DNA from: Yuukianura sp. NJ FZ-2021
Lineage: Eukaryota
Length of the DNA stretch: 64,000 bases
NCBI GenBank assembly: GCA_046563655.1
Contig: JAJCTO010000009.1
Span: 992,001-1,056,000 of the forward strand
Direction: 5' to 3'
Shown: in pieces, positions 15,477 to 38,255 of the stretch
Layout: each line of letters opens with the position of its first letter
How positions within the stretch are numbered: position 1 is the stretch's first letter
Notes under the pieces: model-generated
Databases searched by the model: none
What the model was told of the DNA's origin: nothing
What the model saw: the letters and a program-made list of their open reading frames with translations, nothing else
Made by a program: the position numbers and the translations under genes

Positions 15477-18022
15477 CCAAGATAAAATCTGAGGCAGAGC
15501 GGTTCATTCAGACTTTTAAGTACGCTCTAACCAGATTTAATTGCGATTTATCCACACCAATTAAACTTGGGTTCCTGTAGTACTTTTCAGGAGGTTTTCC
15601 GAAAAGTAAGTCATTTTCACCAGGCATCGCTCCGCGTGGAGTTTTTTTGAATGATTTGTTTTGAAACAAATTTTCATAAAAAAAAGTCACGAGATGAGGG
15701 ACGACACAGCAAGTGAAAGTGGGTTCCTGTAGCCCTTTTTATGAGGATTTCAAAAATATAGTTGACTTTTACCCAGCATCGTTCTGGAATGCATTTCTTT
15801 TGAATTCTTTGTTTTGAAACATGAATTTTCATAAATAAAGGTAACAAGATGAGGGACGACACAGCAAGTGAAAGTGGGTTCCTGTAGCACTTTTTATGAG
15901 GATTTCAAAAATGTAATTTACTTTCTGTTCATTCTCACATTTGCATGTTCATTCTCACAAATTTAAGTCGTTTTGCGTCAAAATGGTGCTCGACATTGCC
16001 CTGGGTGCCGTATTCCAACCCAAGATAAAATCTGAGGCAGAGCGGTTCATTCAGACTTTTAAGTACGCTCTAACCAGATTTAATTGCGATCTATCCACGC
16101 CAATTAAACTTGGGTTCCTGTAGTACTTTTCAGGAGGATTTCAGAAAAGTTATGAAATTTATTTATATTTATTTATTTATGAAATTATTTATGAAAATTC
16201 ATGTTTCAGAACAACGAATTCAAAAGAAATGCATTCCGGAACGATGCTGGGTAAAAGTCAACTATATTTTTGAAATCCTCATAAAAAGGGCTACAGGAAC
16301 CCACTTTCACTTGCTGTGTCGTCCCTCATCTCGTGACTTTTTTTTATGAAAATTTGTTTCAAAACAAATCATTCGAAAAACCTCCACGCGGAGCGATGCC
16401 GGGTGAAAAGGAGTTACTTTTCTGAAATCCTTCTGAAAAGTACTACAGGAACCTAAGTTTAATTGGCGTGGATAGATCGCAATTAAATCTGGTTAGAGCG
16501 TACTTAAAAGTCTGAATGAACCGCTCTGCCTCAGATTTTATCTTGGGTTGGAATACGGCACCCAGGGCAATGTCGAGCACCATTTTGACGCAAAACGACT
16601 TAAATTTGTGAGAATGAACATGCAAATGTGAGAATGAACAGAAAGTAAATTACATTTTTGAAATCCTCATAAAAAGTGCTACAGGAACCCACTTTCACTT
16701 GCTGTGTCGTCCATCATCTTGTTACCTTTATTTATGAAAATTCATGTTTCAAAACAAAGAATTCAAAAGAAATGCATTCCAGAACGATGCTGGGTAAAAG
16801 TCAACAATATTTTTGAAATCCTCATAAAAAGGGCTACAGGAACCCACTTTCACTTGCTGTGTTCTCCCTCATCTTGTGACTTTTTTTTTATGAAAATTTG
16901 TTTCAAAACAAATCATTCAAAAAACCTCCACGCGGAGCGATGCCGGGTGAAAAGGAGTTACTTTTCTGAAATCCTCCTGAAAAGTACTACAGGAACCCAA
17001 ATTTAATTGGCGTGGATAGATCGCAATTAAATCTGGTTAGAGCGTACTTAAAAGTCGGAATGAACCGCTCTGCCGCGGATTTTATTTTGGTTTGGAATAC
17101 GGCACCCAGGGCAATGTCGAGCACCATTTTGACGCAAAACGACTTAAATTTGTGAGAATGAACATGCAAATGTGAGAATGAACAGAAAGTAAATTACATT
17201 TTTGAAATCCTCATAAAAAGTGCTACAGGAACCCACTTTCACTTGCTGTGTCGTTCCTCATCTTGTTACCTTTATTTATGAAAATTCATGTTTCAGAACA
17301 ACGAATTCAAAAGAAGTGCATTCCGGAACGATGCTGGGTAAGAGTCAACTATATTTTTGAAATCCTCATAAAAAGGGCTACAGGAACCCACTTTCACTTG
17401 CTGTGTCGTCCCTCATCTCGTGACTTTTTTTTATGAAAATTTGTTTCAAAACAAATCATTCAAAAAACCTCCACGCGGAGCGATGCCGGGTGAAAAGGAG
17501 TTACTTTTCTGAAATACTTCTGAAAAGTACTACAGGAACCTAAGTTTAATTGGCGTGGATAGATCGCAATTAAATCTGGTTAGAGCGTACTTAAAAGTCT
17601 GAATGAACCGCTCTGTCTCGAATATTATCTTGGGTTGGAATACGGCACCCAGGGCAATGTCGAGCACCATTTTGACGCAAAACGACTTAAATTTGTGAGA
17701 ATGAACATGCAAATGTGAGAACGAACAGAAAGTAAATTACATTTTTGAAATCCTTATAAAAAGAGCTACAGGAACCCACTTTCACTTGCTGTGTCGTCCC
17801 TCATCTCGTGACTTTTTTTATGAAAATTTGTTTCAAAACAAATCATTCAAAAAACCTCCACGCGGAGCGATGCCGGGTGAAAAGGAGTTACTTTTCTGAA
17901 ATCCTTCTGAAAAGTACTACAAAGAATTCAAAAGAAGTGCATTCCGGAACGATGCTGGGTAAGAGTCAACTATATTTTTGAAATCCTCATAAAAAGGGCT
18001 ACAGGAACCCACTTTCACTTGC
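15477..18022. repeat. Satellite block with an orientation switch at ~16150-16190
   Basis: Same 155/388-bp units as 45442-64000; reverse orientation to ~16150, forward from ~16186. Confidence 0.95.
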
Positions 18023-18759
18023 TGGGACTTTCCATCTCAGTTTTGGTAGCTGAAACATGCTTTTTTGGAGGGTGTGGCTTTTGAAAAAATCATGCATTCA
18101 CCACTCCTCATTCATCTGTTTCAGAAGTATTAGACTGGAGATGTTGAGTTTCTGAGTCAAGTGCATCCCCCACACCCCGCTCCCCACCACGTTGTTTTAC
18201 CACACAAAAAATGTCAATAAATCTGGCCTTGCAAAATGTGGTCTGACAAAAAAATGAAAAACATTGAATTCTCTTTCCAGCGAGGTTTTCATATGTGAAA
18301 GCAGAAAATCTAAGTTAACATGAGAAAATGAAATGAGAATTTTTTTAAACAGTTTTTTTGAAAATATATGTTTTTTGAATTTGTTCAAAAACTGAGACAA
18401 AAAAATTCATATTTATACTAATTCATTGTATTCATACTAACAAGATGAGAAGTGTTTGGTTCTTAGTTTCTTTTGTTTGTTTTGACAAGAGAAGAAGCGA
18501 GAGAATCTCTCTCCCATTAAATTTATGTCTCTCTTCACATTTGAAAAAGACAAAAGTAATAAATTTTGTGTCTTGACATGACATGTCAATGCTGACACTT
18601 TGTGATCTTTGTAAACCCAATGGATGGTACTTTGTAAAAATTTGTTTTGTTGTGATTGTTCTGTCTCTGCGTACAAAGCTGAGTTTTAAATCAAAAATAG
18701 TAACAGAAGTTTCAACTTTGAGCGAAAATTCAGTTAAGTTTTGAAAAAAGTCTGAAAAA

Positions 18760-19097
18760 ATGGAGAACTCAAAATTCAACAAAAATCAACTCGAATCCGA
18801 AACGATTCCGGATTCGCATTTGTCTAAACTTGAACATTGTCACAACTTTGACAGTGCTAAATTCGACAAAAGATTTCGAGATTCAAGTTTAATACAAAAA
18901 TTTTTGAAATTCGACGCTCTGGTATTTTGCAAAGAGGGTGAATGTGCAGATCAAGACGTAGGTCAAGATCTTAGTTCGGCAAGTTCCTTGGACGAGGACG
19001 ACGACGGTGGCCTCACACTTTATTAATGGGAGCAGCATATTAAGCCCAGAGTGTACGTCGATAGGGAAACTTCAGATATGCGGAAAAAGTTAGCAAC
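18760..19097 (+). pseudogene. TIR-proximal accessory gene exon 1 (arm B, premature stop)
   Basis: Copy of 8466-8795 with TAT changed to TAA at 19024-19026 and a 9-bp insertion; GTAAGA donor at the end. Confidence 0.5.
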
Positions 19098-19632
19098 GTA
19101 AGAATGATTTGCTGGTGTTTAACAGAAAAACATGTTAGGTCACTCATATATTTTTTTTGTTTTGTAGACCATGTGAGTTCAGTAGTAAGGTCGCTGGGAT
19201 GATGCGTGTGGGGTGGGTACATGGACAACGCCTTGGAAAGAACGAAACTGGACCTCTTGAACCAGTAAGTTTTTAGAAAAAAAAACGCTTTTTTGTTTTT
19301 TAGGTGCTATTTACTTTTATGAAATTTAGGTAAGCACTGCAGGTCGTGAAAAGTGGAAACAGCATGTAGATGGGCGTGGTCTTGGAGCGGAAGAAAAGTA
19401 TTTGCTTCCAATTTAATTTTTTTGTTAGTTTTAATAAATGCTTAGATCTTCAAAATATTCTCAGAGTTCAATCATGGTGAATCATGTCCAAAAGCGGCAC
19501 TAGTTTTTTTGTAATTGTATTTGTGTACCAATTTTTTTTGGAGTAGGTGAAAATGTGAAGGGTAGGCCGTGGAGCTTTGTTCTTGCTAAGATTGGAAAGG
19601 ATTTGATCTTCAAAATCTGTCATTAATTAAAT

Positions 19633-19707
19633 AAGTAACTCAATTGCTCAGTGGCGAGGATGATGTTCATTGAGCATTTGAGTTACTTTTTGCCAGGGTT
19701 CGAATCC
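19633..19707 (+). ncRNA. Putative Pol III-transcribed hairpin (pre-miRNA/VA-RNA-like)
   Basis: ~22-bp stem AAGTAACTCAAtTGCTCAGTGG / TCATTGAGCAtTTGAGTTACTT, A-box-like TTGCTCAGTGG, TTTTT at 19687-19691, B box GGTTCGAATCC at 19697-19707. Confidence 0.5.
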
Positions 19708-20417
19708 TACCCTGTGCATGAAATATTAAATTTTTATACTATCATATTTTGTTATAAATTAGGAAAAAATATGATATGATGTGGAAAGTTTTAAATTTGT
19801 AGGGAAAAAATGTTGAGACTCCTAGAATCAGGTAAGAACATTGATAGTTTTCCCCTTAAACCATTCCTTTGTAAGCAGCAAAGATACATGAACACCGCTT
19901 TTGAAAGAATTGAGGTTTTTAGAAAAAGTCCGTGCTGAGGTGGATCTGGAGTTTTGTATAAATTGGTTGAAAATTTAGAATGTTTGCTCAGAAATTTGAC
20001 AGTCCTGATATTAGATTGAGGTAAAAAAAGTCTAAAGTCATGGCAGGTGATTACTTTTGTTCATTCTGTTCAGAATATTTTGATACACTTCAGTTGTTTG
20101 AAGTACACTGCCGTAGAAGTCACAATAGCAATTACACACAAGCAAGTAAGAGTTGAGTATGTGAAATGTTTTTTTTTTGTTTTTTATTGTTTTAAGTTTG
20201 TGTTCTTTGTTTTAAATTTGAGTTGAACAACCTGGATCAAGCAGATCCATGAGAGGAGGAGCCGCTCATAATCCAAATTTTGAGAGAGACGTAGAAAGCA
20301 GTCAACTGAACGAAGCAGTAACAGATGTTGCTAATATAAGCAATAACGGTACACTTAGTAGATTTTTATGAAGCTAAAATAGGACTTATGAAATTATTTG
20401 TTTTCTAAGAATTGCTT

Positions 20418-23400
20418 ATGGAACTTTCTGAACATGACCTGGATATTATAGAACAAGTGCTGCTGGAAGATGACTTTAGCATTGGTAAATGAATGAAAGC
20501 TAAGTTGCCCAGAAACAGTTGAAAGTATTTTTCTTTTTCAGAACTTTCTCCGCCTCATGAGTGGGGGGAAAACACAAACTTTAAGAATCGATTCTGTCCA
20601 CTTTGTGTTGTTCGATTCAAGGATCCGGGTGACTTGGATTTACATCGTTTCGTTTATCATCCAGAACTATTTGATGGAAATGAAATACCAATTCAAGTAG
20701 GTGGACGATTAACTTCTGTTCAATTTGAACTCCAGCGCGGACGAAGAGGACGTGAAGGGATTGTAAGAGAATATGTTTTTGGTGACGTTGAAGTGTTTAC
20801 CTGTCACGAAGTGATTCTATTAGAACTTTCGAGAAGCATCTTTTCTGAAATTGGGGCCTACAGAATTGTGGGTACTATTTTTGCTGAAATGACAAGATTA
20901 ACAAGAGATGTTGCTGGTGTTTGTGAAAGTGAAGTTTTCCCGTTTCACTCATTTATGCATAGTGTTTTAGATCCTAGTATGGTGTCAACAGTTATTATTC
21001 AATTACAGCGTAAAATGTCGCTATCTTTGGAAACATTTTTATACAATGGTTCTGGATGGAAAGTGAAACTGTTCAAAAAGTTTCAATTACGAATTTTGAA
21101 GTTCCAAATGGATCGAGTTTCAAGTTTTATTCCTACACCAAAGTCAATTCAAAAGAAAAATTGTATTGTGAATATCAAAAACATGGATCAGTATTGTTTC
21201 AAGTATTGTATTTTAGCAGCTCTGATACCTCTTTATCAGAACCCAAAAATTAGTTGTAGACAGTTCACAGACCCTAGAGTATATCTGAAATACAAGTGCA
21301 GTGTTGATTTTGACTGTGTAAATTTTCCAATGACAGTTTGCCAGTTGGATAAATTTTTGCATTTTAATCCGACCATATCAGTAAATGTGTACGGTTATGA
21401 GGAATTAGATGAACTGGACTCTACCATTTCAAAAAAGAAGATCACCGTTTTCCCATTGTATGTATGTAAAGAGCGAAGAAAGTTTAACATTGACTTGCTG
21501 TTGTTGTTGGAAGGTTTGAAGTCTCACTTTACATTGTTAAAGAAGAGTGAAAATAATCCTTCAGATGGTCTGTCTCGACTTTTGGGAAAAGGTGAACGGA
21601 ATTATGCAAAATACATTTGCAGATTTTGCCTGCTATATTGGAGGACAAAGAAAAAGCTTGAAAATCATGAGAAATTTTGTGCTGCTTTAGAACTACAAAG
21701 AGTGACGTTACCATTTGAAAAGTTTTACAATTTCACGAGAATTAAGAGAACACTGCCTGTTCCAGTGGTTGGTTATTTGGACTTTGAAGCAGTTTTATTT
21801 CCAAAAGCAGCAAGTGCACTTACGTCGAAAGTTGGTGATGTGTACAATGAACATATAGCTTGTGGTTGGGCACTTATTATGGTTGGACCTCTTGGTGAAC
21901 CATTGGAAAAAATTAAAATATTTCAAGGTCAAGACGCGCAGCATACAGCTCTTGATGAGTTAATTAAAATTTCTTCAAAATATTTTCCATTGTTAAAAGT
22001 TGATGTTGGAAGAGACATGCGTTGGACTACTAGAGACTTTTATAATCTTCTGCATGCATCCACACACTGTATACATTGCGGTTTGGAGGTTCCTAATCAA
22101 GAAAAGGTTGTTGACCACTGCCACTACACTGGAGAAATTCGTGGAATGAGCTGCAGCGGATGTAACTTAAAATCTGAGACAGTGAATTTCATTCCAATCA
22201 TATGCCATGGTTTTCGTCACTATGATTCAAAATTTATTGTACAAGCTCTGAACAGTGCAAAATTGAAAAAAGTGGACGTGTTACCTCACTCGACTGAAAA
22301 GTTTACTTCGATGCAATTGACAACTTTGGAAGGAAATGTGCTTAAGTTTATGGATTCTTTTCAGTTTATAAGTTCGAGTTTAGCTGATAAAGTGAATGTT
22401 TTGGCGAAGGATAACTTTGATAAGTTTCCCATAACAAAAGTTGTATTTGATAAAAATTATCAAAACATTAATTTGTTGTTCCGCAAAGGAGTGTACCCCT
22501 ATACCTATTTTGATAATTTTGAAAAATTTGAAGAGACAAGTTTACCACCAAAAAGTGTTTGGGTTAGTGACTTAACAGGAAAAGGAATTTGTGATGAAGA
22601 ATATGAACATGCTCAGCGTGTTTGGAAGGAGTTTGGTTGTAAAACTTTGAGAGATTATCATAACTTATATGTATCTCTAGATGTCACACTGCTTGCTGAC
22701 TGTTTTCAAAACTTTAGACAGAGATTTTTAGCTGATTTCCGTTTAGATCCTGCTCACTATTATACGTTGCCGGGTATAGCATATGACGCAGCTATACTTT
22801 GTGGTAGTGTTGATCTTGAATGTTTGAGGGAACTGGATCAATATTTATTTATTGAAAAAGGAATTAGGTCATTACGATATGCTAAAGCGAACAACAAGTA
22901 CTTAGCGTCAGCTTATGATTCCACACAACCAACAAGTTATTTGTGTCTGTTTGATGCGAACGTCTTGTACGCCCACCAACTCCGAAATTTTGTACCCTGG
23001 AAACATTTTCGGTGGGATTTATGCTTATGGCAAAGGACACTGAAGATGGATGATGTTGTGAAGATGATTTTGGGAATGGGTGATGAGGCAGAAGAAGGTT
23101 TAATTTTGGAAGTAGATTTGACTTATCCAAAGGAGTTACATGACATAATGACTATACACTAGCAGTAGAAAGGCGTTGAATTCAATTTTCAGATTTATCA
23201 TCCTATACTCATCATGTTATGAACAACGTTGGAACAAAATCCGCAACTCAAAAAAAGACAAAATTGGTGGGAAGTTTAGAAGATAAAAAGAATTATGTTA
23301 TACACTACAGATTACTAAAACTTTTTTTGAAACTGGGTTTGAAGTTAACAAAAGTACACTGTGCTCTAAGGTTCAGACAAGCGCCATTGTTTCGTGTATA

Positions 23401-24771
23401 CTGTGAGTTATGTATAAAACGACGTCAAGAGTCAACTAATGAAGTTGATAGGAAAGCCTATAAAGCTTTGGGAAATATTTTAGTTGGAAAAACTTTTCAA
23501 AATGTTAGAAAATATAAGCGAATAAATGTTGGTTTGTGTCCAAGGCCCGTAGGCCGTGGGGACTAGAGCTCCGGCTCTATCCTACTAACACCTTGGACGG
23601 GCGCGGGTTCGCGTCCCGGCGTCGCCGACACGAAAGTCATTTTCCAGAAATTGTTTTCCCACTTTCCTAGCCCAGATGGGGTGTTCGGATGATAGGTCAG
23701 TTTGGGGGGTTTTGGGTGCGTGTGAAGAGGTCAGTAGTTGCAGTTGTGGAGGGGGGTCGTGGGCCGGTATGCGTACGATGCTGTTCCTGTCACTTGCCTG
23801 GAGCTGTGATATGTGGTAGGGCCCTAGCCCGTTCAGCTCTAGCAGAAAGCCTTTCGTCCTTCCCTCAGAACTTCTCGCCAACTATCAGACTGTACCACCG
23901 CCCCACCTCATAGGACCTCAACCCAACCCAGAAATTCCCTACCCCTGTTGATAAAGCTAAATGCTAATGTCAATTAACTCTCAAAAAAAAAAATGTTGGT
24001 TTGTCAAATCAAAAGATTTTAGAGTATGGTAAGAAGCCTACCGTAGAGGATATTAGAATGATACACGATGACTGTGTTTTGTTTGTAATGAAGAAATTGT
24101 CAGTGTGTTTAAATAAGCCAATATTTGTAGGACTTACTATATTAGATGATAGTAAAAAACAAATGTATGAAGTGTACTATAACAAATTGAAACCACGTTA
24201 TGGTAGTAATATGCGTCTGATATTTACAGATACTGATAGTTTTATGTTACATATTAAAACGGAAGATATTTATGCTGATATTTATAATAGTGTAAAGAAA
24301 GACGAAGGCTTGTTTGATACATCAAATTTTAAAAAATCTGATAGGCTTCTAGGGCACTTATACAGTGACAAGCATGCTGGAGAAGGGGGTTATTTTAAGG
24401 ATGAAAGTCCAGATTGCATAATTTCTGAAGTTGTAGCTCTAAAACCAAAACTATATGCTTTGAAGGTGGTGACACGTGATGGAGAGGAGAAAGAAATTAA
24501 AAAAGCTAAAGGTACAGTTACGGCAGTACTGGAATCTCAGTTGAATTTCAATGATTATAAAGATGTATTAGAAGAAGGTAGCTGTAGATTTGTGTCAATG
24601 AATACAATTCGTAGCTTAAATCACAGACTGTACACAACAACAATGAAAAAGCAGAGTTTGTCTGCTGTAGAAGACAAAGCGTTTTATTTAACACCAATTG
24701 AATCTCTTAGATTTGGACATTATAAAATTAAAGAGTATCAAGGTGAACAAGAAGAAGAAAGAGTTGAATAA
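20418..24771 (+). pseudogene. polB: pPolB (arm B) with spliced N-terminus and C2H2 finger; deletions, frameshift, stop and SINE insertion
   Basis: Same motifs as arm A. Intron 20485-20541 joins the ATG at 20418 in frame. Lesions near 20777, 22868, 23145 and 23178. Removing the SINE restores KRINVGL-SNQKILEY. Confidence 0.93.
23538..23990 (+). mobile_element. tRNA-derived SINE in pPolB (arm B)
   Basis: TSD AAATGTTGGTTTGT (23524-23537 and 23991-24004), poly(A) tail, head with B-box-like GGGTTCGCGTCCC. Confidence 0.88.
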
Positions 24772-24842
24772 AATGGAAAAGGATTAATAAATCAAAGTTT
24801 TGTATATGTTTCACTTCATTTACTCCCAGAACCTCAGAAAGA

Positions 24843-25476
24843 ATGGAGTTCAGGCCTGAATTAATTCATCCATTTGTTATGGTGCTGAGTCGACCTACTC
24901 AAAGTGGGAAAACATCACTGATTAAACAATTGATTGAGAGAAGGGACGAAGTTATTGAACCAAAAATTAAACGTATTGTTTATTGCTACAGTGAGGATGA
25001 GCCTAGTTTTGCTGAAGCATTGAAATTACATCATAACGTTGAATTTAAGCAAGGAATGGAGAATTTGGATGTTGGAGAAGGAAATCAAGTTGAAACTATG
25101 GTGATTTTGGATGATTTTATGGAAGTTGTTGCCAACTCAAAATAAGTTTGTGGCATGGCCACAAGAGGGTCTCATCATCGTTCGCTTAGTTTAATTATAA
25201 CAGTGCAAAACTTTTTTTATAAAGGGTGTAGAAACCTAACTTTAAATAGTAAATATGTAGTTTTGTTTCGAAATCCCAGAGATACATCAATTATAAAATA
25301 CTTGTCAAGACAAATGCATGGTGGAAAACCAAACAGCTTATTAGAAGAAGCATATGAAGATGCAACCAAAAACAAACCTAATAGTTATTTGTTTATTGAT
25401 TTATCTCAAAATCAGGATGACAATTTTCGTTTTAGATCAAATTTATTTCCAGACTCATCCTCTTGTATAGTATATA
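24843..25476 (+). pseudogene. Polinton packaging ATPase (arm B); last codons displaced to 31391-31401
   Basis: Walker A/B motifs; TAA at 25143-25145; joining across the nested element gives ...SCIVYMKK-stop followed by AATAAA. Confidence 0.9.
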
Positions 25477-27050
25477 AGTCAATGGTTTGGGAGGCCAACG
25501 CCCCCCCCCCCTCCCCCGTTTACTTTTGCACTTTTGGTTTTTCTTTTTGCACTTTTGTGCAACTTTTTATATTTCGTTTTTGTCCATGCTCACTGTAGGT
25601 TTAGGTGCTTAATTAGTTTTTAAAAATAATTTTAAGAAAATATTTTGCGGTTTTGTGGTTTTCGTGCAAGTACCTACCTGAAAAATCCTCTCCTCTTTGC
25701 ACTTTTATACAACTTTTTAGTTTTTTTATAGCTTGGGCTCATTTTAAACTTGGCATTTAATTTGGTTCTTATTTTTTTTTTGTGTTTGAAAATACTACTT
25801 TCCCGGAAGCTATCTCTCTCGGAAACTTTTTAAATAGTAAATTCTCAAAAATGTTTCTTTGTAAACATCAGGTTCCTTTCTAAACATCTTTCGAAAATAT
25901 TTTGAAATGACACAAGACCTAACCTACGGTTCGTCTTGCACGTTTGCGGTTTTTAATTGCCGAATACTTCCGTGTCGCGATCGCTAATTAGAATGCACGA
26001 AAAAAACTTACGACAAGTTCAATCAATGAAAACTTTTGACCTTGTGAGTTGATTGACTCGTGTACAAAAAGCAAACTTATTTAAAAAAACGTACGACAAG
26101 TTCAAGCAATGGGAACTTTTGACATTGTGAGTTGATTGACTCGTGTACAAAATACAAACTTATTTCCAATATAAACAATTGCAAGCACAAGGGCAATGGT
26201 GGGAGGTCTGCCTTCTAGCTTTTCGCCGAGTGAATAACGGTTCACTCACCGCAAAAGCATTGCGTAACCATTTCAATGCTATAATTTGACTAGTCAGCGT
26301 TTCCATCTAGTTGCTTATGATCCGTGGAGTGTTGGTACGCAAGTTTATACGACACCCAGTGCTCATTTTGGTATTGGTTTTTTTCAAAATCACAAATCTC
26401 ACCGACTAATTTCTGCCGCTAGACGTCAACCTCGTTTACTATTGGTCCGCTAGTCCTTCAAAACTACACATACTAGTCGTTTTGAATGGGCATGGAAATA
26501 GCTTTATCGCAAGTCAACTGCCCAAGGACGTTCAAATCCCTCGAGTTTGACGATAAAGTGCGTCAACCTGACTTCTGATTGGTCGACGTGTTGTTGCCCC
26601 AGAGGGCGTGGCTAGTACAATACTGAAATTTGATTGGTCAAAATCCCAGCCCGTGTATCAATTTCAGCCAATTGGCGTCCAGCTCGCTTTTGATTGGTCG
26701 ACTTGTTGCTGCCCCAGAGGGCTTTGCCAGTAAAATACTGAAATTTGCTTGGTAAAATCCCAACCTGTAAACCAATTTCAGCCATTTGGCGTCCATCTCG
26801 CTTCTGATTGGTCGACGAGTCGTTGCATCAGTGGGCGTGGCCAGTACATTGCTGCAATTTGATTGGTCAAAATCCCAAGGCCTATACCAATTTTCAGCCA
26901 ATGGGCGTGCAGCTCGCTTCTGATTGGTCGACATGTCGTTCAAAAATGGCCTAGTCCCACCAATGGGAGTGGCTGGTCGCAAAATGTTTTAAAATCCTCT
27001 GCCATTTTTTTTAGAAAGTGCAATAAAATAAACTCGTGGAATCATAAAAA
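25477..27050 (+). repeat. Left TIR of the nested element (~1.57 kb)
   Basis: Reverse complement of 29810-31384 with few differences. Confidence 0.93.
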
Positions 27051-27272
27051 GTGGTCTCGAGACATCATTTGTTGCTGAACCCTGGCGTATATACAGCATG
27101 CTGTGTGCGCCAGAACATTATAAACTGGCCAGTTTGGAAAACATTTAATCTTCACTGCTTTACCAAACCATACTCATTTGTAGTTTGACAAGCAACCGGA
27201 AAGGACGTGCTCGCAAAGCAGGAAGCAAAAGTAACCTCAAGGGTGTTTTTGACTGAGAGCGACACTGGTACA

Positions 27273-27830
27273 ATGGATTCTGCACAAGTTACGCCAAAGA
27301 ATAGCAAGAAAACGAAAAACGAGGATGGAAATCAGGTAATGGGGTTCCTCTCAAATGAAGAATTGCAAGTTCTGGAATCGGCTAATCGAAGAAACGCGAG
27401 AGTTGAGGATGACGATTCTGACGGACGGTCCAAGTTACCTCGCAAGTTGCAAAAAACGTCGCTGCAACATGGAAGAATGTCGCCATTTGAACAGCATATC
27501 CCGCACCAAATGTCGCCAAGTGACACAGAAACACGCAAGACATCGAAAAAATCACGCCGCAAAGGGTCAAAGTCTATGAAATTGACGCGAAAACGAAAAA
27601 AAGGCGGAAGAAAAGAGGAGAGAATCGAATCCCCACGCTGTAGTGGAGCAGAATCTGATACAGATTCAACAAAAAAGAACAAAAAACATCAAAAAGTCAC
27701 CCAAAGTGACGTTGCAGGAAAGAAATCAACTAGAAAAACTTCAAAAAGGAAACCAAAAAGGGGGCAAACTGGACTTATGTATGCTACTTCGTGCAAGAAT
27801 AGTGCAAATGGTAGCCTGCTTCTGCGGTGA
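27273..27830 (+). CDS. Lys/Arg-rich basic protein (putative DNA-condensing core protein)
   Basis: First ATG at 27273, TATA-like TTATAAA near 27118; tracts such as RKTSKKSRRKGSKSMKLTRKRKKGGRK. Confidence 0.55.
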   Translation: MDSAQVTPKNSKKTKNEDGNQVMGFLSNEELQVLESANRRNARVEDDDSDGRSKLPRKLQKTSLQHGRMSPFEQHIPHQMSPSDTETRKTSKKSRRKGSKSMKLTRKRKKGGRKEERIESPRCSGAESDTDSTKKNKKHQKVTQSDVAGKKSTRKTSKRKPKRGQTGLMYATSCKNSANGSLLLR

Positions 27831-28255
27831 AACCACTTGCCTTTACACATTTGTCATTAAGTATAGTAGAAACTAAAGTCTCCCCACCTGTTGACTACTA
27901 TAAATTGGCATTATTAGCCAGTTTGGCGGCCAGTCGGCATGCGACAGCCGAGGTGACAACACCACTCTGCCAAAAAATTGTGCAAAATTGTACGTTTAGT
28001 GGGCAGAGTTGTCTTCAAACGGTCGCCAATCGGTACCCAAAAGCCAAATTTAATACACTTTTCTGCCAAAAAGTTGGACATTTGCATCCAAACGGTCGCC
28101 AGTCGGCATCGGCACCTCTTATCGACCTCATCACTCGACGTACTTTAGACAACAATTGGCTCTACATTGTTGAGGTTCAGCGATTTTTAGCAAATTAAAA
28201 TACCCCAACAATATCTCACAGACTTGACCTAAAACGAGGCCAACTAACCACGGAA

Positions 28256-29677
28256 ATGGAGCTTACCGTTCCAATGCACTCGAAGCTGGTGGACACAAAT
28301 GCCAAATTGGACTTGTTTTCCATGCCAGATACCGAAGTGTCTTGCCTGCTGGACAATTATCTCAAAGTAGAGTCGTACTATGCCACAAAAGGAAATGAAA
28401 ATCCGATTCATTTTTCGTTTTGGCAAATGGCCTACCTGGATTTGTCGGATTCGTTTTTCAGATTTGTAGTTTCCATTCGAAAAAAAGATGGTTCGGCACT
28501 CGGTGACACAGACAAGGTTGCTCCGGAAAATCTGTTCTTTCACACATTTATCGAAGATTTTAAAGTCGTTGTCAACAACACGCAAGTCGTGGCGCAGGGG
28601 CCAAGAGCATACCCGTACGAGGCTTGGATATTTACTCAACTTCAGCAAGGGATTGGTTCGAAAAGCAGTACATTGTCCAGGGAAATTTATTTTCCCGGCA
28701 ATGTTATGGACAACTTTGACGACACAAACCCAAGCTTCAAAGCTCGACTTGAGCTGGCAAAGAAAAGTAATCAATTCGAGATGATTGGACGTCCGATGCT
28801 TGGAATTTTCACTTCGCCGAGACTTTTCCCGCCAGGAACACGGTTCAATTTTCAAATTCAGCGGACCAACCCAGAGTTTTGCTTGTGCGGACCATCCTCT
28901 ACAACTGAATACAAGATTGAAGTGGAGTGTGCAGACTTTTACGTTCGCCAATATCGTCTAAATGAAAAGTTGACTACTCAACTTCGCACCGCATTTGCAA
29001 AAAAGAAAATGGCATTGTATTCTTTTGACAACGCCGTCAAGTTCTCTACGTATGTACCCGTTGGGGTAACCGAATTTGAAATTCCAAAAATTATGCCTAC
29101 GGCAATTCGGCCAAAGCTCCTCTGCATTGCAATTACGACAAGCGAAGTCGTCAACGGTAAACTCGAAAAGTCACCGTTTAATTTCAAACCACATGGAATC
29201 AAAAACATGAAACTCAAATTCGAAGGAAAGGGAGTTGTTTTTGAGGAAATGAACTTTGAAAACAAAAATTACATGCTGGCCTACAACAACATGTGCAAGT
29301 TAATTTCACATGGAACCGACGGAAACGACATTACATATGAGCAATTTGTAAAGGGCAATGCGATTTTTGTGTTTGACACTCAAAACTTGAGATCAGACAC
29401 GTTCAACCCTGGAAAAATTGGACAATTTGCATTGGGCCTTAGCTTTGACGAAAAGACAAAGGAAGAGCTAATGGTTATCACCATTGCCGTGGAAGACGTT
29501 ACGCTGGAAATTGGAGAAGGCGGTTCGCATCTACGAAAAGCATTTTTTTCAAGTAATTTTTGTAACTTCAAATTTCAAAGCGTTCCTTCATATGTATTCC
29601 ACTCACAATACTTTATACAATTCATAATCTGGTGTAATGTATGGTATGAGCTTGAAAATAAAAACCAGCATCATTAA
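28256..29677 (+). CDS. Polinton-type double jelly-roll major capsid protein of the nested element
   Basis: LDLFSMPDT, NPIHF, YLDLSDS, YPYEAWI and SPFNFKPH motifs run collinear with the host MCP at 36399-37737; intact ORF followed by AATAAA. Confidence 0.88.
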   Translation: MELTVPMHSKLVDTNAKLDLFSMPDTEVSCLLDNYLKVESYYATKGNENPIHFSFWQMAYLDLSDSFFRFVVSIRKKDGSALGDTDKVAPENLFFHTFIEDFKVVVNNTQVVAQGPRAYPYEAWIFTQLQQGIGSKSSTLSREIYFPGNVMDNFDDTNPSFKARLELAKKSNQFEMIGRPMLGIFTSPRLFPPGTRFNFQIQRTNPEFCLCGPSSTTEYKIEVECADFYVRQYRLNEKLTTQLRTAFAKKKMALYSFDNAVKFSTYVPVGVTEFEIPKIMPTAIRPKLLCIAITTSEVVNGKLEKSPFNFKPHGIKNMKLKFEGKGVVFEEMNFENKNYMLAYNNMCKLISHGTDGNDITYEQFVKGNAIFVFDTQNLRSDTFNPGKIGQFALGLSFDEKTKEELMVITIAVEDVTLEIGEGGSHLRKAFFSSNFCNFKFQSVPSYVFHSQYFIQFIIWCNVWYELENKNQHH

Positions 29678-29809
29678 AGCTAAATAAAACCAATAGTCTA
29701 ACTTTGGATTTATTTAAAACTAGTTTTTAAGGGGATCGGTGACGCGGCATGTATTTCTGAACCACATTATGTTGGCTTTTTGAGGACCGGCAGTGGTTCG
29801 CATCTCATT

Positions 29810-31384
29810 TTTTTATGATTCCACGAGTTTATTTTATTGCACTTCCTAGAAAAAAATGGCAGAGGATTTTAAAACATTTTGCGACCAGCCACTCCCATTG
29901 GTGGGACTAGGCCATTTTTGAACGACATGTCGACCAATCAGAAGCGAGCTGCACGCCCATTGGCTGAAAATTGGTATAGGCCTTGGGATTTTGACCAATC
30001 AAATTGCAGCAATGTACTGGCCACGCCCACTGATGCAACGACTCGTCGACCAATCAGAAGCGAGATGGACGCCAAATGGCTGAAATTGGTTTACAGGTTG
30101 GGATTTTACCAAGCAAATTTCAGTATTTTACTGGCAAAGCCCTCTGGGGCAGCAACAAGTCGACCAATCAAAAGCGAGCTGGACGCCAATTGGCTGAAAT
30201 TGATACACGGGCTGGGATTTTGACCAATCAAATTTCAGTATTGTACTAGCCACGCCCTCTGGGGCAACAACACGTCGACCAATCAGAAGTCAGGTTGACG
30301 CACTTTATCGTCAAACTCGAGGGATTTGAACGTCCTTGGGCAGTTGACTTGCGATAAAGCTATTTCCATGCCCATTCAAAACGACTAGTATGTGTAGTTT
30401 TGAAGGACTAGCGGACCAATAGTAAACGAGGTTGACGTCTAGCGGCAGAAATTAGTCGGTGAGATTTGTGATTTTGAAAAAACCAATACCAAAATGAGCA
30501 CTGGGTGTCGTATAAACTTGCGTACCAACACTCCACGGATCATAAGCAACTAGATGGAAACGCTGACTAGTCAAATTGTAGCATTGAAATGGTTACGCAA
30601 TGCTTTTGCGGTGAGTGAACCGTTATTCACTCGGCGAAAAGCTAGAAGGCAGACCTCCCACCATTGCCCTTGTGCTTGCAATTGTTTATATTGGAAATAA
30701 GTTTGTATTTTGTACACGAGTCAATCAACTCACAATGTCAAAAGTTCCCATTGCTTGAACTTGTCGTACGCTTTTTTAAATAAGTTTGCTTTTTGTACAC
30801 GAGTCAATCAACTCACAAGGTCAAAAGTTTTCATTGATTGAACTTGTCGTAAGTTTTTTTCGTGCATTCTAATTAGCGATCGCGACACGGAAGTATTCGG
30901 CAATTAAAAAACCGCAAACGTGCAAGACGAACCGTAGGTTAGGTCTTGTGTCATTTCAAAATATTTTCGAAAGATGTTTAGAAAGGAACCTGATGTTTAC
31001 AAAGAAACATTTTTGAGAATTTACTATTTAAAAAGTTTCCGAGAGAGATAGCTTCCGGGAAAGTAGTATTTTCAAACACAAAAAAAAATAAAAAGCCAAA
31101 TTAAATACCAAGTTTAAAATGAGCCTAAGCTATAAAAAAAACTAAAAAGTTGTATAAAAGTGCAAATAGGAGAGGATTTTTCAGGTAGGTACTTGCACGA
31201 AAACCACAAAACCGCAAAATATTTTCTTAAAATTATTTTTAAAAACTAATTAAGCACCTAAACCTACAGTGAGCATGGACAAAAACGAAATATAAACAGT
31301 TGCACAAAAGTGCAAAAAGAAAAACCAAAAGTGCAAAAGTAAACGAGGGAGGGGGGGGGGCGTTGGCCTCCCAAACCATTGACT
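29810..31384 (-). repeat. Right TIR of the nested element
   Basis: Reverse complement of 25477-27050. Confidence 0.93.
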
Positions 31385-31414
31385 TATATATGAAGAAATA
31401 ATAAAAGCTTACAG

Positions 31415-31966
31415 TTACAATCTTTTGAGTTTCATAAGCCCTTCCATTAAACAGTCGTACAGCTCAACTGGCAAAGCAACTCCCACACTTTGATCAAATT
31501 GATTTCTAATGTGCAAGTGTGAGGTTCCAGAGAATCCGTTTTCATTTCCAAAAAAAAGTTGCCATCCATCTTCCAAGTTAATTTGAGGTGGTGGAAACGG
31601 TTTAGGGAACTCTTTTCGGACTTCAACAACCATAGATAGTGATGTAACCTTTCGTGTACGTTGATTAGTTGCTGCAGATTGTCGTCTAATTTTCTTTCCT
31701 CCAGTTCTGCGAGAAGGTTGATCAGATCCTGGTGCAGTTATTGGTAGGTTTGGTTGAATGACAGTATTAATATAAGTGTCCATTTCTGTAGCAAATGGAG
31801 AAGTATTAGGAGATGCTGGTTTGTCCATTGTACGAGTTCTACCAAGTTTATTTAGGTTACAATTGCACGAGAAAGTTTTACACACGGTTATTGTAGTTGT
31901 ATTATTTCTTTTAAAGAAAAAATTGGATAATGTTTGCCAAATTGAACAAAAACTGCATGAGCTCAT
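31415..31966 (-). CDS. Polinton accessory protein, possibly with a PC4-like C-terminal domain
   Basis: 183-aa ATG ORF downstream of the integrase; FSG..HLHIR...GVALPVELYDCL pattern. Confidence 0.55.
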   Translation of the reverse strand: MSSCSFCSIWQTLSNFFFKRNNTTTITVCKTFSCNCNLNKLGRTRTMDKPASPNTSPFATEMDTYINTVIQPNLPITAPGSDQPSRRTGGKKIRRQSAATNQRTRKVTSLSMVVEVRKEFPKPFPPPQINLEDGWQLFFGNENGFSGTSHLHIRNQFDQSVGVALPVELYDCLMEGLMKLKRL

Positions 31967-31984
31967 TCCAGGTTGAAGTTCAAA

Positions 31985-32963
31985 TTAGGAATGAAAAACT
32001 TTTAAAAGTTCTTCTCTGTAAAATATTCCAAAAATTGGAACTCTGTCTTTATCTTGAATTTGAAATGTTGTTGGATTTGTATTATAAATATTTGAAACTG
32101 TAAAAATTTCATCTTTCCATGATTGGGCGTAGCCTTTAGCAAAGGTAGATTTGACTTTACTAATAAGTACTTTATCACCAATGTGAATTTGTAGTTTTGA
32201 CTTTGGAAATTTGACTTTAGACTTGTACTTTGAGTACAAATTTAAGAAAACTTGAGTTTTAGTTTCATTGTTGACTTGATTTGGAGTCATTTTTATTGAG
32301 GAATGATAGGAATTATTATAAGCTTCAACTATATTTTGCAAAACATGAGTGTATCTTGTACTATTTGTATGTGTCATATACTTTGCAATTCTATTCATGA
32401 GAGTTCTATTAAAACGTTCAACTATCACAGCTTTTAGTTCAGAACGGGTATTAAACAACTTAACGCCTGCCTTTTTAAGCATAGTTTTTACGTTCTTATT
32501 TATAAATTCAGATCCTTGATCACACTGTAATTGTTTAGGAACACTTTTTTTTAAATATTTTTTGTAAAGTTGTAGTTAAAAGTTGTCCAGTTTTGTTGTT
32601 CAGTGGAATAACATCTGCAACTTTTGAAAAAGCATCGATACAGGTAGCTAAATATCTATTTCCACCATTTGTGTCTTTGTATTTGGATAGGTCAACCAAA
32701 TCAACACAATACTGATATTTTATTGATGGAACAAAGACTTTTCGCCTGGGATAATGTTTCCTAGCTTGAACGTGTAAGGTATATGCAGGTAGAGATGACA
32801 GAGCATTTCTCACTACTTTGGAAAGAGTGGATGACGAGAGTTTATTTTCTTTAGATTTAAGTAAAGTTTTGACAATTTGGTTATGACCAGTAAAAGCAAA
32901 ACTACTTTTTGGGTTGACATATTGCTGTTTAATTTTTTTTTCAAGTTTAAGGTGGCGTCTCAT
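31985..32963 (-). pseudogene. Polinton retroviral-like DDE integrase (one frameshift)
   Basis: YTLH...R..YPRR, VDLVD, IDAFSK, CDQGSEF, ERFNRTL and YN..YHSSI motifs; frameshift in an A-run near 32545. Confidence 0.92.
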
Positions 32964-33138
32964 GATGAGAAGGAGTAGAAGGGGGGAGAAGGAATAAGAG
33001 GGGGTAGCTGCAGTTCAAATATGAATACGTGATGGAAGGAGACTGAGAAAATATTTTAAATGTTTAAATTCTTAAAAAGGATTTAGTATATTTGAAAAGT
33101 TTATTCATTTGAAGAGTAGACATGTCGCTGACAACATC

Positions 33139-34717: not shown

Positions 34718-34915
34718 GGATTTTTTTTTCCAGCGTGTCCACAGTGGATTTTTAATCCAGCGTTTCTCTGGATTTTTTTCCCAGCGTGTCCACAGTGGAT
34801 TTTTAATCCAGCGTTTCTCTGGATTTTTTTTCCAGCATGTCCACAGTGGATTTAATCCAGCGTTTTCTCTTGGATTCTTTTCCAGCGTGTTCACAGTGGA
34901 TTTAATCCAGCGTTC
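34718..34915. repeat. Four ~51-bp tandem repeats
   Basis: ACAGTGGATTT at 34741, 34792, 34843 and 34893; each unit has two GGATTT..CCAGCGT halves. Confidence 0.9.
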
Positions 34916-35002
34916 CTTTTGGGTTTAAATTCGTGCCTTAACATTGAGTTTTTAAATCCCTGCGTTAACTTTGTTGTACATTTTAAAAAAAGTTAAAAAG
35001 TT

Positions 35003-35882
35003 ATGAGTTTAATTGGAAACGAAACTTCATTTTATGTTACTTTACAATCTAATGCTTCCATGGACATTTTCCCTGGAAATAAAATTTCCGATTTTAAAAA
35101 TCGGCTTGGCTCTCCAATTTCTCTTCCACCAGGTCAATGGCAAGTAGCTTTAACAAGTATAAGTTACACATACGGTAGCCCATTCATAAGAAAAGGAGAT
35201 GTTTTATTTGAAAAGAAGAAGAGTGAAGGATCTACTTTGGAAACACCTACTTCAAAAATTATATATTTACATAAAGAAAAATCTTTAGAAACAACACATG
35301 TGGAAATGAAGGAGGCTTGTTGTACCAACAACTGTTCTCATACCACCATCACCTCCAATCTCATCTTACAAAGATATAACTACAGAATCTGAACTACTTC
35401 ATGTACTACATACACAAATTGATGGAAGTACTTTTGAGATTGATGGAAATACATTTTCTTATAATATTCCACTCGACCAAACAGAAATTTTAGAATTTTC
35501 TCCAAAATTATGTGATATTCTTGGTTTAAGTTCTAACCAACTTAACTACTCTCATGAAAATTCAAATGGAAAAAGAATTTTTAGTGGCAAAGGAACAATG
35601 CCAATGTTTTTAAATTCTGGAAATACTAAATTATTTATATATTGTCCTTTAATTCGACCACAATTTGTTGGACACGTGATGGTTCCATGCCTCCGCGTGA
35701 TTGATTATGATGGAATTACTGGGAAACAGAAAACACATGAATTTATACATCAATTCTTTTACGATATAGCAGTGTCAGAATTTGAAGTAATACACATATA
35801 TATACGCAATGAAGTTTCTGAACCAGTTGCATTTGAATTTGGTAATGTGACTGTTACACTACGATTTCGAGAAAAACGTTAG
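35003..35882 (+). pseudogene. Minor capsid (penton, PX-like) protein, frameshifted
   Basis: FYVTLQSNASM..FPGN..SDF...L...I.L...WQVAL at the N-terminus and LFIYCPLI..Q.VG....P.LR at the C-terminus. Confidence 0.85.
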
Positions 35883-35895
35883 GATTTTTTAAAAA

Positions 35896-36380
35896 ATGAA
35901 ACATTCAGGATTTAGCTGTCGAGTAGATGAGCCGAATCAATTTTTTAAATTAAATTATCATATTCCACAATTTGGATACGGAACAGTAGAACCAAGATTA
36001 TATTTTTCTGGAGTTAGGAGACAAAAAGGGGCTGGACTTGGTGGAGTTTTTGGTACTTTAGCTAGACGATTGTTACCATTTGTTAAACAATTTATACTTC
36101 CACATGCAGCAAAAGCCATTAAAAGGTATTGCTGTTGATGCGATTGGTGGAAATCAAAATATGAAACAGTCTCTTAAAAATCATGGCCTGCAGGCACTTA
36201 AGTCAATGGGACAGGATGTTCTTAGTCAGAGTGGTTTTGGAAGACGAATTCGAAACAAGTCTAAAAAAAACGTACTTTGAAACGTGTAGCTCGTAATAAC
36301 CCCAGACCCCAGAAAAAGAGAAGAGTCAAGAGAAATAAGAAGAAGAATATAAAGTCAAAAAAATTAGATATATTTTTTGA
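35896..36380 (+). pseudogene. Core/PW-like basic virion protein, frameshifted
   Basis: FSG.RRQKGAGLGGVF..LARR.LP, QSGFG and an Arg/Lys-rich tail, located between penton and MCP. Confidence 0.7.
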
Positions 36381-36398
36381 AAAAAAAACAAAACAAAA

Positions 36399-37737
36399 AT
36401 GCCTAAAGTCAAAGCTTCAAAATTAAATTCATCTCATGCTCCCTACACTGTAATCAGATCAGAAACTCAACTTTTTGAAGAACCTGTCTATGATGTTTCA
36501 CTTTCTTCAACTTCAATTTCTGAGTATCATTCAATTTAATTCAATTACTGATTCTCAATCTCCACTTGAATTTTTTATTCAATCAAATCAAGTGGAATTT
36601 TTGGACCTTGCCGAAACTAAACTATATATTAAGGCACGTATTGTTAAAACTGGCAATTCAACTTTAGATGAACCGGATATTGTTATACCAACAAACAATT
36701 TTCTTCATAGTTTGTTTTCACAATGTTCCATTTATCTAAATGAAGTTCAAATCACGCCCGCAAATAATTCCTATGCTTACAGAGCTTATATTGAAACCTT
36801 ATTAGCATATGGAAAAGAATTTAAAAAATCTCAAAGTCAATGTGCATTTTTCTATAAAGATAAAGATCCTAAAAATACGGATGTAAAATTAGAAGGCGGT
36901 TTGAAAACTCGTTACGATTTGGCAAAATCTTCAAATATAATTGAATGTTTGGGACGTCCATTTACAGATATATGTATGCAAAATAAGTATTTAGTTCCTG
37001 GAATTGATGTTCGTGTCTCATTCCTTCGCTCTACTCCTGAATTCTCACTCATATCCACTATAGCTAATGCAAAATATCAAGTTCAAATTTTGGAAAGTAA
37101 ATTAATTGTTCAAAAACAAAGCCTTCTTCCATCTCTACTCACTTCTACTCTTAAAACTTGGGAACAAGGAAGACCAGTTACTTATCCTTTAAAAAGAGAT
37201 GAAGTCAAAACATATACAATTTCACCTGGAACTATAAATAATGTGAATGAAAATCTGTTAACTGGAATTGTACCTGATAGGATTATTTTAGGACTCATTC
37301 CTTCTGAAAATTTTATTGGAACTTTTCCTACTAATCCGTTTGCTTTTGAACATTTTGGACTAAATTATATTCATGTTTGTATAAATGGAGATGGTGGCTC
37401 TAGTCTTCCAGTTCATTGTGATTTTGATGACAATCAATACGTACAGTTGTACAGTAATCTATTCTATGGTCTTGGAATTTCTAATGATGATGTTGGAATT
37501 GATATAAATTGGAGTGAATTTAAATCTAATCCATTATTCGTTTACAACTTGAGACACATAAAAGACGGATTCCCTGCTCCAAAATATGGAAATGTTAAAA
37601 TTGATTTGAAGTTTAAAGAAGCTTTGAAAAAAGCAATTACTGTAATTGTATATTCTGAACTACAGTCAGTGTTACATATTGACAGTTCAAAATCAGTTTA
37701 TTTTAGAGACTACAGTGGATCAACTATTGATTCATGA
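36399..37737 (+). CDS. Polinton major capsid protein (PY/hexon-like), frameshift near 36530
   Basis: ATG at 36399 (SETQLFEEP), then SPLEFFI, FLDLAET, NNFLHSLFSQ, YAYRAYIETLL and NPFAFEHF. Confidence 0.9.
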
Positions 37738-38255
37738 ATACTAATCAAATTTTTTCTCATCTTAACTCCTTTTTATCAAACAAAAATTGTTCATTCGATG
37801 TAATACCATGTGACTTTTTAGACTCTTACTCAATTAGGCAATATCCTTTACTCCTTTGTTGTAATACGGATGAATCAAATTCTCCTGGACAACATTGGAT
37901 TTCAATTTTTAGGAAATCATCTCAAACTCCTCTCATTTTTGTTGATTCCTATGGAATGGGAGTCAACTTTTATAATAAATCTTTTCAAAATTTTGCTTCC
38001 CGCCTAAAAACTTACTTTATAGAAAATACAAAAAGACTCCAAAGTTTCAATAGTACAGTTTGTGGAGACTATTCAATTTACTTTTTATATAAACTTTATA
38101 CCTCTTGTTGTTTAATGTCAATTTATTGTAACTTTAATCGTAATACTTTTAGAAATGATTCAAAAGTCAAATACTTTGTTAGAAAAAAAATTAAATGTAG
38201 AAAATTTGATTCAACTTATAAATCTATTCAATGTTGTCAACCTTTTTTGAAATAA
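37734..38255 (+). CDS. Adenain-like cysteine maturation protease
   Basis: NTD....PGQHW, FVDSYG and LQ...STVCG catalytic motifs; overlaps the MCP stop codon. Confidence 0.92.
   Translation: MNTNQIFSHLNSFLSNKNCSFDVIPCDFLDSYSIRQYPLLLCCNTDESNSPGQHWISIFRKSSQTPLIFVDSYGMGVNFYNKSFQNFASRLKTYFIENTKRLQSFNSTVCGDYSIYFLYKLYTSCCLMSIYCNFNRNTFRNDSKVKYFVRKKIKCRKFDSTYKSIQCCQPFLK

Follow-up and report, generated by a model that had tools for sequence, protein, structure and literature searches.

What kind of mobile element keeps a capsid gene while encoding no recognisable enzyme for its own replication or integration? This question is raised by a stretch of 64,000 nucleotides on contig JAJCTO010000009.1 of Yuukianura sp. 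NJ FZ-2021 (this whole stretch is called the window, and all coordinates count from its first letter), in which a 5.9-kb unit, here called the nested element, lies within a resident Polinton at the end of a gene for a putative packaging ATPase. Between long inverted repeats it carries two genes, predicted to encode a basic protein and a major capsid protein (MCP). The original prediction, which was made from the letters of this DNA alone, had regarded it as a candidate Polinton satellite. Our preferred reading, in which our confidence is evenly balanced, is that the nested element is a non-autonomous element of the Polinton/Maverick kind with a capsid lineage of its own and a satellite-like lifestyle. 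We favour it because the two-gene layout recurs in a metagenomic contig, L001, with about 50% MCP identity and with unrelated repeats.

A discrete insertion with Polinton-type ends

The nested element is delimited by the following target-site duplications (TSDs) and terminal inverted repeats (TIRs).

25477-31384: the nested element as a whole unit, 5,908 bp, ends read directly
25471-25476 (no strand): left TSD, TATATA, read directly; a single copy in the empty-site contigs, where its six letters fit both sides
31385-31390 (no strand): right TSD, TATATA, read directly and supported by the empty-site contigs
25477-27050 (+): left TIR, 1,574 bp, starting with AGTCAATGG and then a run of C
29810-31384 (-): right TIR, ending with CCATTGACT
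27051-29809 (+): unique core, 2,759 bp, between the TIR arms
26000-26165 (no strand): 83-bp tandem repeat, two copies, in the left TIR; mirror copy at 30695-30860
26572-26940 (no strand): 114-bp tandem repeat, 3.2 copies, in the inner left TIR; mirror copy at 29921-30289

At the left junction, ...gtatata is followed by AGTCAATGGTTTGGG... (also given as AGTCAATGGTTTGGGAGGCC), and at the right junction ...CCCAAACCATTGACT (also given as GGCCTCCCAAACCATTGACT) passes into the flank tatatatgaagaaataataaaa; the outer ends of the 5,908-bp unit are AGT...ACT. An inverted-repeat scan found collinear inverted arms at 25471-27050 and 29810-31390. The TIRs, which make up 53% of the length of the nested element, are 98.99% identical to each other over 1,578 columns when the element is compared with the window by blastn, and 17 of 1,577 columns (1.1%) differ in a MAFFT alignment. 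The TIRs of about 1.57 kb, the AGT...ACT ends and the flanking TATATA, all of which had been listed in the original prediction, were confirmed by direct reading, and the TIRs also by these comparisons. The further claim that the TIRs are unrelated to those of the host was also borne out: the TIR ends of the nested element and the ends of the resident Polinton have only AGT in common, and blastn of the element against the rest of the window gave no match of at least 80 bases (E <= 1e-10) except its own copies. A composite transposon made of two inverted copies of a 1.57-kb element was rejected, since the inner end of the TIR is not the inverse of its outer end. With regard to the inner repeats, the 114-bp array contains 11 CCAAT/ATTGG motifs per 369 bp against 0.78 expected from shuffles, and it is likely a candidate promoter or enhancer array directed at the core.

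Five public DNA runs contain the stretch, four from one sample of organism A (X1, X2, X4 and X5) and one of organism B from another study (X3). For an empty-site test, Logan contigs of X1-X4 (two samples, two studies) were mapped onto 24000-33000 of the window. Contigs of X1, X2 and X3 join 25470 directly to 31385, omitting 5,914 bases, with six letters that fit both sides; the side lengths of this joint are 50, 36 and 50, respectively, and record 16 of X3 runs unbroken through it. X4 has a diverged version of the joint, from 25476 to 31397 with nine other letters between. Polinton copies without the nested unit and with one TATATA occur in both organisms A and B, and in X1 and X3 the listed contig over the ATPase end is of the empty form. 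From these unit-free contigs with a single TATATA it follows that the nested unit was inserted as a discrete piece and duplicated 6 bp of its target.

The same joint defines how the host gene was interrupted.

24843-25476 (+): P-loop ATPase gene of the resident Polinton up to the insertion, with an in-frame stop at 25143-25145 in this copy
31390-31401 (+): displaced ATPase end, three codons (MKK) and a stop at 31399-31401, with AATAAA at 31400-31405, read directly and supported by the empty-site joint

With the unit in place, the ATPase frame passes from ...CIVY into 41 codons of TIR sequence. Removal of the element restores the ATPase C-terminus, as had been predicted, with MKK, the stop and AATAAA found to the right of the unit and with the two sides joined in the empty-site contigs. 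The insertion costs the ATPase its last three codons only, which weakens the earlier idea that the element could interfere with its host by sitting in this gene. The insertion site lies where the 3' ends of the resident ATPase gene and of the oppositely oriented integrase gene converge.

As described in PMC8097293, vertebrate Mavericks have (AG)3 or (AGT)2 motifs at their ends, together with TIRs and perfect 6-bp TSDs. Because its ends, TIRs and TSD match these hallmarks, the nested unit was most likely integrated by a Polinton-type integrase; the AG..CT ends, 6-bp TSD and long TIRs on which the original prediction had relied as Polinton hallmarks stand up in the ends, the TSD and the empty sites. 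It could be argued that there is no separate element at all, and that the structure arose in assembly or belongs intrinsically to the resident Polinton, since the locus is rearranged, partly duplicated in inverted orientation and situated beside satellite arrays. However, public runs from two studies contain both the filled sequence and the precise empty site, and we find this explanation hardly credible.

The core genes and their relatives

Two genes occupy the core.

27273-27830 (+): open reading frame (ORF) for the basic protein, 185 amino acids, 25% lysine plus arginine, 21% serine plus threonine, isoelectric point (pI) 10.5, with a TATA-like motif upstream near 27088
28256-29677 (+): ORF for the double jelly-roll MCP, 473 codons, with TATAAA upstream near 27901 and AATAAA just past the stop

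The basic protein has no family match in Pfam, PHROGs or the protein atlas. The sequence of the element MCP gave only chance-level rows against PDB (E of at least 0.12), and its Pfam rows were likewise weak. It aligns with the MCP of the resident Polinton (36490-37737) at 24% identity over 398 columns (BLASTP, E 4e-29), and a profile made of both window MCPs and four database relatives collected 10,484 proteins at E <= 1e-3. An AlphaFold2 model based on a 70-row alignment has a predicted local distance difference test (pLDDT) score of 87.2 and a predicted template modelling (pTM) score of 0.84. Foldseek against PDB gave the mavirus MCP as the best match (6g44_A, E 1.6e-14, probability 1.00), followed by the MCPs of iridovirus, PBCV-1 and Sputnik; the matches in the viral structure library BFVD are also MCPs, with an uncharacterised protein from a bracovirus record in the first row. 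Moreover, the element MCP retains all 16 of the nearly invariant residues of the 70-sequence alignment. Because of the alignment with the resident MCP, the modelled fold and the Foldseek matches, the predicted product of this ORF is a divergent double jelly-roll MCP of the Polinton type.

All 38 stop-to-stop frames of at least 50 amino acids in the nested element were scanned against Pfam; none of them reached the Pfam cut-off or pointed to a polymerase, integrase, ATPase or protease. When 17 protein pieces of the resident Polinton were compared with the element by tblastn, only the MCP matched (E 1.3e-29), and the next match (E 0.004) is antisense to the MCP gene and at chance level, though very divergent remnants could escape this search. 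The three resident PolB pieces gave a best E of 0.18 and the integrase pieces E values of at least 0.5, without any rve match in the Pfam scan. Neither the frame list nor tblastn gave an ORF in the element for a penton protein, a packaging ATPase or an adenain-like protease. The statement in the original prediction that the core has no replication or integration enzyme is supported by the 38 frames and the 17 protein pieces, and, with no integrase of its own, the nested element is non-autonomous.

A cut-and-paste transposon of another superfamily, with a DDE transposase and a captured capsid gene, could likewise show long TIRs with a short target duplication in AT-rich surroundings. We consider this origin very improbable, because a 6-bp TSD with AG..CT ends is the Polinton signature in the account of PMC8097293, no transposase remnant occurs in any of the 38 frames, and the pair of basic ORF and MCP is a sub-module also seen in the resident Polinton. 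The original prediction had itself named a DDE transposon with a TA duplication as an alternative, against which the 6-bp TSD and the lack of a transposase remnant in these frames likewise speak.

A word-indexed protein search found four relatives of the element MCP at 41-52% identity, each of them carried by a short contig of metagenomic or Logan origin; one, P0001, lies on a contig of 5,991 bp. A quick IQ-TREE analysis with the Shimodaira-Hasegawa-like approximate likelihood ratio test (SH-aLRT) was run on 71 rows, namely 68 of the first 80 representatives (of ranks 1-152), both MCPs of the window and that of L001. The tree omits P0009, 13, 23, 40, 51, 55, 59, 64, 65, 67, 68 and 74, mostly fragments, two-stretch matches or sequences of odd length. 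In this quick tree, the element MCP forms a clade of seven with P0001-P0005 and L001 (SH-aLRT 100, stem 0.69), and all seven have full-length MCP ORFs. The resident MCP is placed outside the clade, beside P0008. The capsid lineage of the nested element thus appears to differ from that of the resident Polinton. The structure prediction and the MCP phylogeny, which the original prediction had proposed as checks, gave a double jelly-roll fold and a clade apart from the resident MCP.

A search by pattern gave 136 matches among metagenome contigs, two of which (L001 and L002) are relatives, and 93 matches among viral contigs, none of which is a relative. The whole metagenomic contig L001 (3,944 bp) has the following features, without strand.

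L001 1185-1670: basic ORF, 24% lysine plus arginine, pI 10.3
L001 1819-3138: MCP, about 50% identical to the element MCP; no other long ORF on the contig
L001 3-454 and 3365-3795: inverted repeats of at least 452 nt, with tandem repeats inside, running off the contig

At the DNA level, L001 resembles the window element in the MCP gene only, and the repeat sequences of the two are unrelated. L002 (1,218 bp) contains repeats, a basic ORF and the start of an MCP. Similarly basic ORFs precede the MCP in L001, L002 and the resident Polinton; across the comparison, the basic ORFs have 24-27% lysine plus arginine and a pI of 10.3-10.9. Tandem direct repeats are located at 565-1011 and 3502-3944 of L001 and at 196-465 of L002, either upstream of the basic ORF or in the inverted repeats. 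They have no sequence relationship to the window repeats, while the architecture is common.

The resident Polinton and the history of the locus

The Polinton that harbours the nested element was delimited as follows.

18023-44409 (+): resident Polinton, with ends AGTAGTAATC...GATTACTACT (true ends also given as AGTAGTAATCTTG...CAAGATTACTACT)
44410-44415 (no strand): TSD of the resident Polinton, TACGTG, equal to the reverse complement of 9570-9575
20523-24771 (+): protein-primed PolB, in three pieces
31985-33014 (-): integrase, in two frames
34997-35882 (+): penton-like ORFs, in two frames
36490-37737 (+): resident MCP
37734-38255 (+): ORF at the position of the protease, with no family match

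The resident Polinton begins with (AGT)2; the left end of the main copy is without its outermost 35 bp, which were lost against satellite DNA. At the in-frame stop of the ATPase gene, the contigs have a different letter. When the stop was read through as X, the ATPase matched AAA_14 with E 9.9e-5 and Pox_A32 with E 0.0069, both short of the Pfam cut-offs, and the putative label of a packaging ATPase is based on these weak hits, a GKT P-loop motif and the position of the gene. With its polymerase, ATPase, integrase and penton genes broken, the resident copy is degenerate. This degeneracy and the unrelated TIRs weaken the notion that the resident Polinton itself serves as the helper.

Between the penton-like gene and the MCP, short frames are found at 35893-36426 (+), one with a GAGLGG motif and one with 47% lysine plus arginine. 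These frames look like the broken counterpart of the basic gene of the nested element. Given such basic frames before the resident MCP, the combination of basic ORF and MCP looks like a standing sub-module of Polintons.

Some other features of the resident Polinton are recorded here. An Endonuclease VII-type domain (PF02945) at 22020-22169 (+), in the N-terminal half of the PolB ORF at 20523-23162, scored above the Pfam cut-off (E 1.5e-7). At 23567-23967, some 400 bp of higher G+C break the PolB frames; this segment has no Rfam match and may be a small insertion or an intron, and no part of 18000-45500 reached the Rfam gathering scores. Upstream of the penton-like gene, a 51-bp unit is repeated in tandem (3.8 copies, 34722-34914). 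An F-box/LRR-like ORF of 514 codons with weak Pfam matches and a proline-rich ORF, together at 38996-41450 (-), are possible cargo genes.

A second copy of the nested element is located at the edge of the window.

1-2038 (-): second copy, truncated by the edge of the window, with 99.56% identity in 2,040 columns and corresponding to the first 2,037 bases of the element

This copy is followed by TATATA at 2039-2044 and by the same ATPase flank as in the main copy, and 18023-27513 recurs in inverted form over the whole region 1-9534 (98.4% in 9,555 columns). TACGTG is found after the right end of the main Polinton at 44409 and also, in the orientation of the Polinton, before the left end of the inverted partial copy at 9569; one BEL/Pao pol gene supplies both flanks, its 5' part on one side and its 3' part on the other. 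The shared TACGTG, the split pol gene and the same junctions indicate that both copies descend from one Polinton insertion already bearing the nested element, and that the locus was later duplicated and rearranged beside satellite DNA. Between the duplicates, the host part has diverged by 1.0% and the element part by 0.2% (MAFFT). Since the TIRs of the element differ by 1.1%, the nested insertion predates the duplication of the locus.

The BEL/Pao retrotransposon that was split by the Polinton is represented by 9576-15474 (-) and 44416-45441 (+). It contains gag (DUF1759), a pol with reverse transcriptase, peptidase A17 and the zinc domain of an integrase, and finally a DUF5641 tail; two 339-bp segments, 15136-15474 and 45103-45441, are 99.7% identical and may be its long terminal repeats. 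The structure is flanked at 15468-18022 and 45442-64000 by large arrays of a 155-bp satellite, in which higher-order periods of 388 and 464 bp are present, and such a satellite-flanked locus suggests a repeat-rich, possibly pericentromeric region.

With regard to further copies, core contigs in each of the four runs show 1.6-2.1% divergence from the window, and a variant outer terminus appears as a loose end at 25539 in X1 and X2. Joints with internal deletions were found in contigs of X3 (27390-29322) and X4 (26396-29534), with short sides. Contig cover is low or absent in some bins of the outer TIR. In X1 and X3, the two runs whose listed contig over the ATPase end is empty, the word depth of the core is equal or similar to that of the Polinton flanks (X1) or several-fold higher (X3); since depth is not to be taken as copy number, it serves as a hint only. 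These core variants, deletion joints, variant termini and depths hint at further copies of the element.

The position inside a Polinton bears on another explanation, namely that the unit is a mobile capsid cassette, a TIR-bounded module that moves capsid genes between Polintons and gives the resident a second MCP, without a separate satellite life. The site is near-harmless, at the junction of the ATPase and integrase 3' ends with three codons lost, and the composite now has two MCP genes of different clades. Such a cassette would offer one way in which the mosaic capsid modules of this virus group could arise; the mosaicism of small eukaryotic DNA viruses is the subject of a preprint (10.64898/2026.10.13.758929). 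On the other hand, only one insertion into a Polinton is documented, the listed contigs carry empty copies, both filled copies come from one event, and there is no sign that the composite has moved. We therefore judge the cassette improbable.

Satellite-like life or deletion derivative

If the nested element is satellite-like, it would have been integrated in trans by the retrovirus-like integrase of an autonomous Polinton, and it would probably be copied from its TIR ends by the protein-primed polymerase of a helper. Both core genes would be driven by the CCAAT-rich tandem arrays at the inner ends of the TIRs. The element would contribute the shell protein and perhaps a DNA-binding protein, and the helper would give the penton, ATPase, protease, polymerase and integrase. 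Since only AGT is common to the two sets of ends and the two MCPs fall in different clades, an element from the lineage of the nested unit is a more likely helper than the resident Polinton. The pair of capsid genes would then be maintained rather than left as debris, and the L001 pair between long inverted repeats argues for such a maintained capsid-only lineage. A stricter version is that of a true Polinton satellite, which the helper copies, integrates and packages, with the faces of the particle formed by the element's own MCP and the 5.9-kb genome condensed by its own basic protein; this version we regard as unlikely.

The chief rival is that the nested element is a functionless deletion derivative of an autonomous Polinton of another family, in which the basic and MCP genes escaped deletion by their position and which would spread, if it did, on its TIRs alone like a miniature inverted-repeat transposable element. 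We doubt this explanation and yet consider it a serious possibility. Non-autonomous deletion derivatives are presented as the norm among DNA transposons in PMC6431247, and several of our own observations weigh against a satellite-like life. The window MCP ceases to match its relatives from about residue 422 (about 29519), the AlphaFold2 confidence declines from residue 432, the X1 contig and one X2 contig are set apart from the window copy by a frame-shifting indel at 29519, and a short conserved C-terminal motif of the family lies in another frame just downstream. The window copy is therefore slightly broken, with an MCP ORF that is open but frame-shifted in its C-terminal tail, and, together with the TIRs that are 1.1% apart, this marks it as old and decaying. 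The original prediction of a core with a basic protein and an intact MCP ORF holds for both ORFs but not for the word intact, which fails past about residue 422. The joints in the contigs delete most of both genes. Moreover, the 11 differences listed for the basic gene (4 synonymous, 7 non-synonymous), a small and selected subset, are indistinguishable from neutrality. The frame-shifted tail, these joints and these substitutions would all suit a derivative.

Other points tell against the satellite-like reading more directly. Without a penton gene, the element alone could not close a double jelly-roll shell; the claim that it supplies its own capsid is weakened by this lack and by the shifted MCP tail of the window copy. 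No copy at an independent locus with a different TSD was found in the window or in the X1-X4 contigs, and the second copy has the same host junction as the first; an autonomous Polinton with the same TIRs may exist beyond these sequences. As the inverted repeats of L001 extend past the contig, their terminal position is not proven. Among the window, L001 and L002, the basic ORFs have no alignable similarity (BLASTP of window against L001 gave no alignment), a short C-terminal motif being the sole stretch shared by L001 and L002. Finally, L002 has an open frame upstream of its basic ORF whose end is weakly like the C-terminus of the resident penton-like protein (E 0.096, a single comparison). 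Because of this possible penton end, members of the MCP clade may also occur in fuller elements.

Against the deletion derivative, it is unlikely that two like deletions would have produced the layout that recurs in L001, where the MCP is 50% identical and the repeats are unrelated. The same recurrence argues against a one-off internal deletion, which the original prediction had named as an alternative. The full-length ORFs in all seven members of the clade, the 16 of 16 near-invariant residues and high-confidence predicted fold of the window MCP, and the TATA-like and poly(A)-like signals at each gene also oppose a functionless origin.

The satellite-like reading can be compared with known systems. 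Repeat libraries catalogue non-autonomous Polinton derivatives, and the nested element resembles them in its Polinton ends and TSD, its lack of enzymes and its presumed mobilisation in trans; unlike them, it keeps two virion-type genes in a layout that recurs in a distant relative. Capsid-encoding satellites are known as capsid-forming phage-inducible chromosomal islands and as adeno-associated virus with its adenovirus helper. Like these, the nested element has its own shell protein gene and no replication or packaging machinery, and it would obtain the remainder from a helper. No homology is meant by this likeness, and, unlike these satellites, the nested element has no vertex protein. Transpovirons are not known to encode a capsid protein and are carried in the particles of their helpers, which are giant viruses of amoebae. 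The nested element differs from them in encoding a capsid protein. It is similar in size, since transpovirons too are DNA elements of about 6-7 kb, and also in its long TIRs and its presumed reliance on a larger virus-like element of the same broad assemblage (PMC5499653).

All Polintons encode a protein-primed PolB and an rve integrase "by definition", in the words of the same source (PMC5499653). The nested element agrees with autonomous Polintons in the 6-bp TSD, the AG/AGT...CT/ACT termini, the long TIRs, a double jelly-roll MCP from the same large family and the basic ORF just upstream of it, as in the resident copy, but it has no PolB, rve integrase, ATPase, protease or penton and measures 5.9 kb against 15-20 kb. 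Virophages and Polinton-like viruses are described as having complete morphogenesis modules, their own replication proteins and genomes of 14-40 kb (PMC12220804). Their MCP fold is related (mavirus and Sputnik are among the top structural matches), and their dependence on a helper virus is a likeness to the helper dependence proposed here, whereas the nested element has neither a full morphogenesis module nor replication proteins. Some papers reported smaller elements within larger ones: Ngaro retrotransposons nest in endogenous mavirus-like elements (PMC8547959), and insect polintons carry transposable elements as cargo (10.1101/2025.02.07.637071). Our case is similar in that a smaller mobile element lies within an endogenous virus-like element, but here the smaller one is itself of the Polinton kind and has a capsid gene.

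In a search of full-text literature, with supplements outside its scope, neither a non-autonomous Polinton with a capsid gene as its main content nor a Polinton satellite was found to be described. Particles of animal Polintons/Mavericks are said in PMC8097293 not to have been observed, and for that reason virus-like behaviour is treated as an open question. Should the nested element be a deletion derivative and nothing more, it would count as an ordinary non-autonomous transposon that is unusual in what was left over. If it is a true satellite, it would be a eukaryotic counterpart of the capsid-forming phage satellites, and Polintons would still form particles in animals. An enzyme-free element that keeps a capsid gene is sensible only if capsids are made now or were made recently, and if its state persists across a lineage. 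Such elements would then be a natural reporter of virion formation by Polintons, and they would add an extra layer of parasitism, a parasite of a virus-like transposon.

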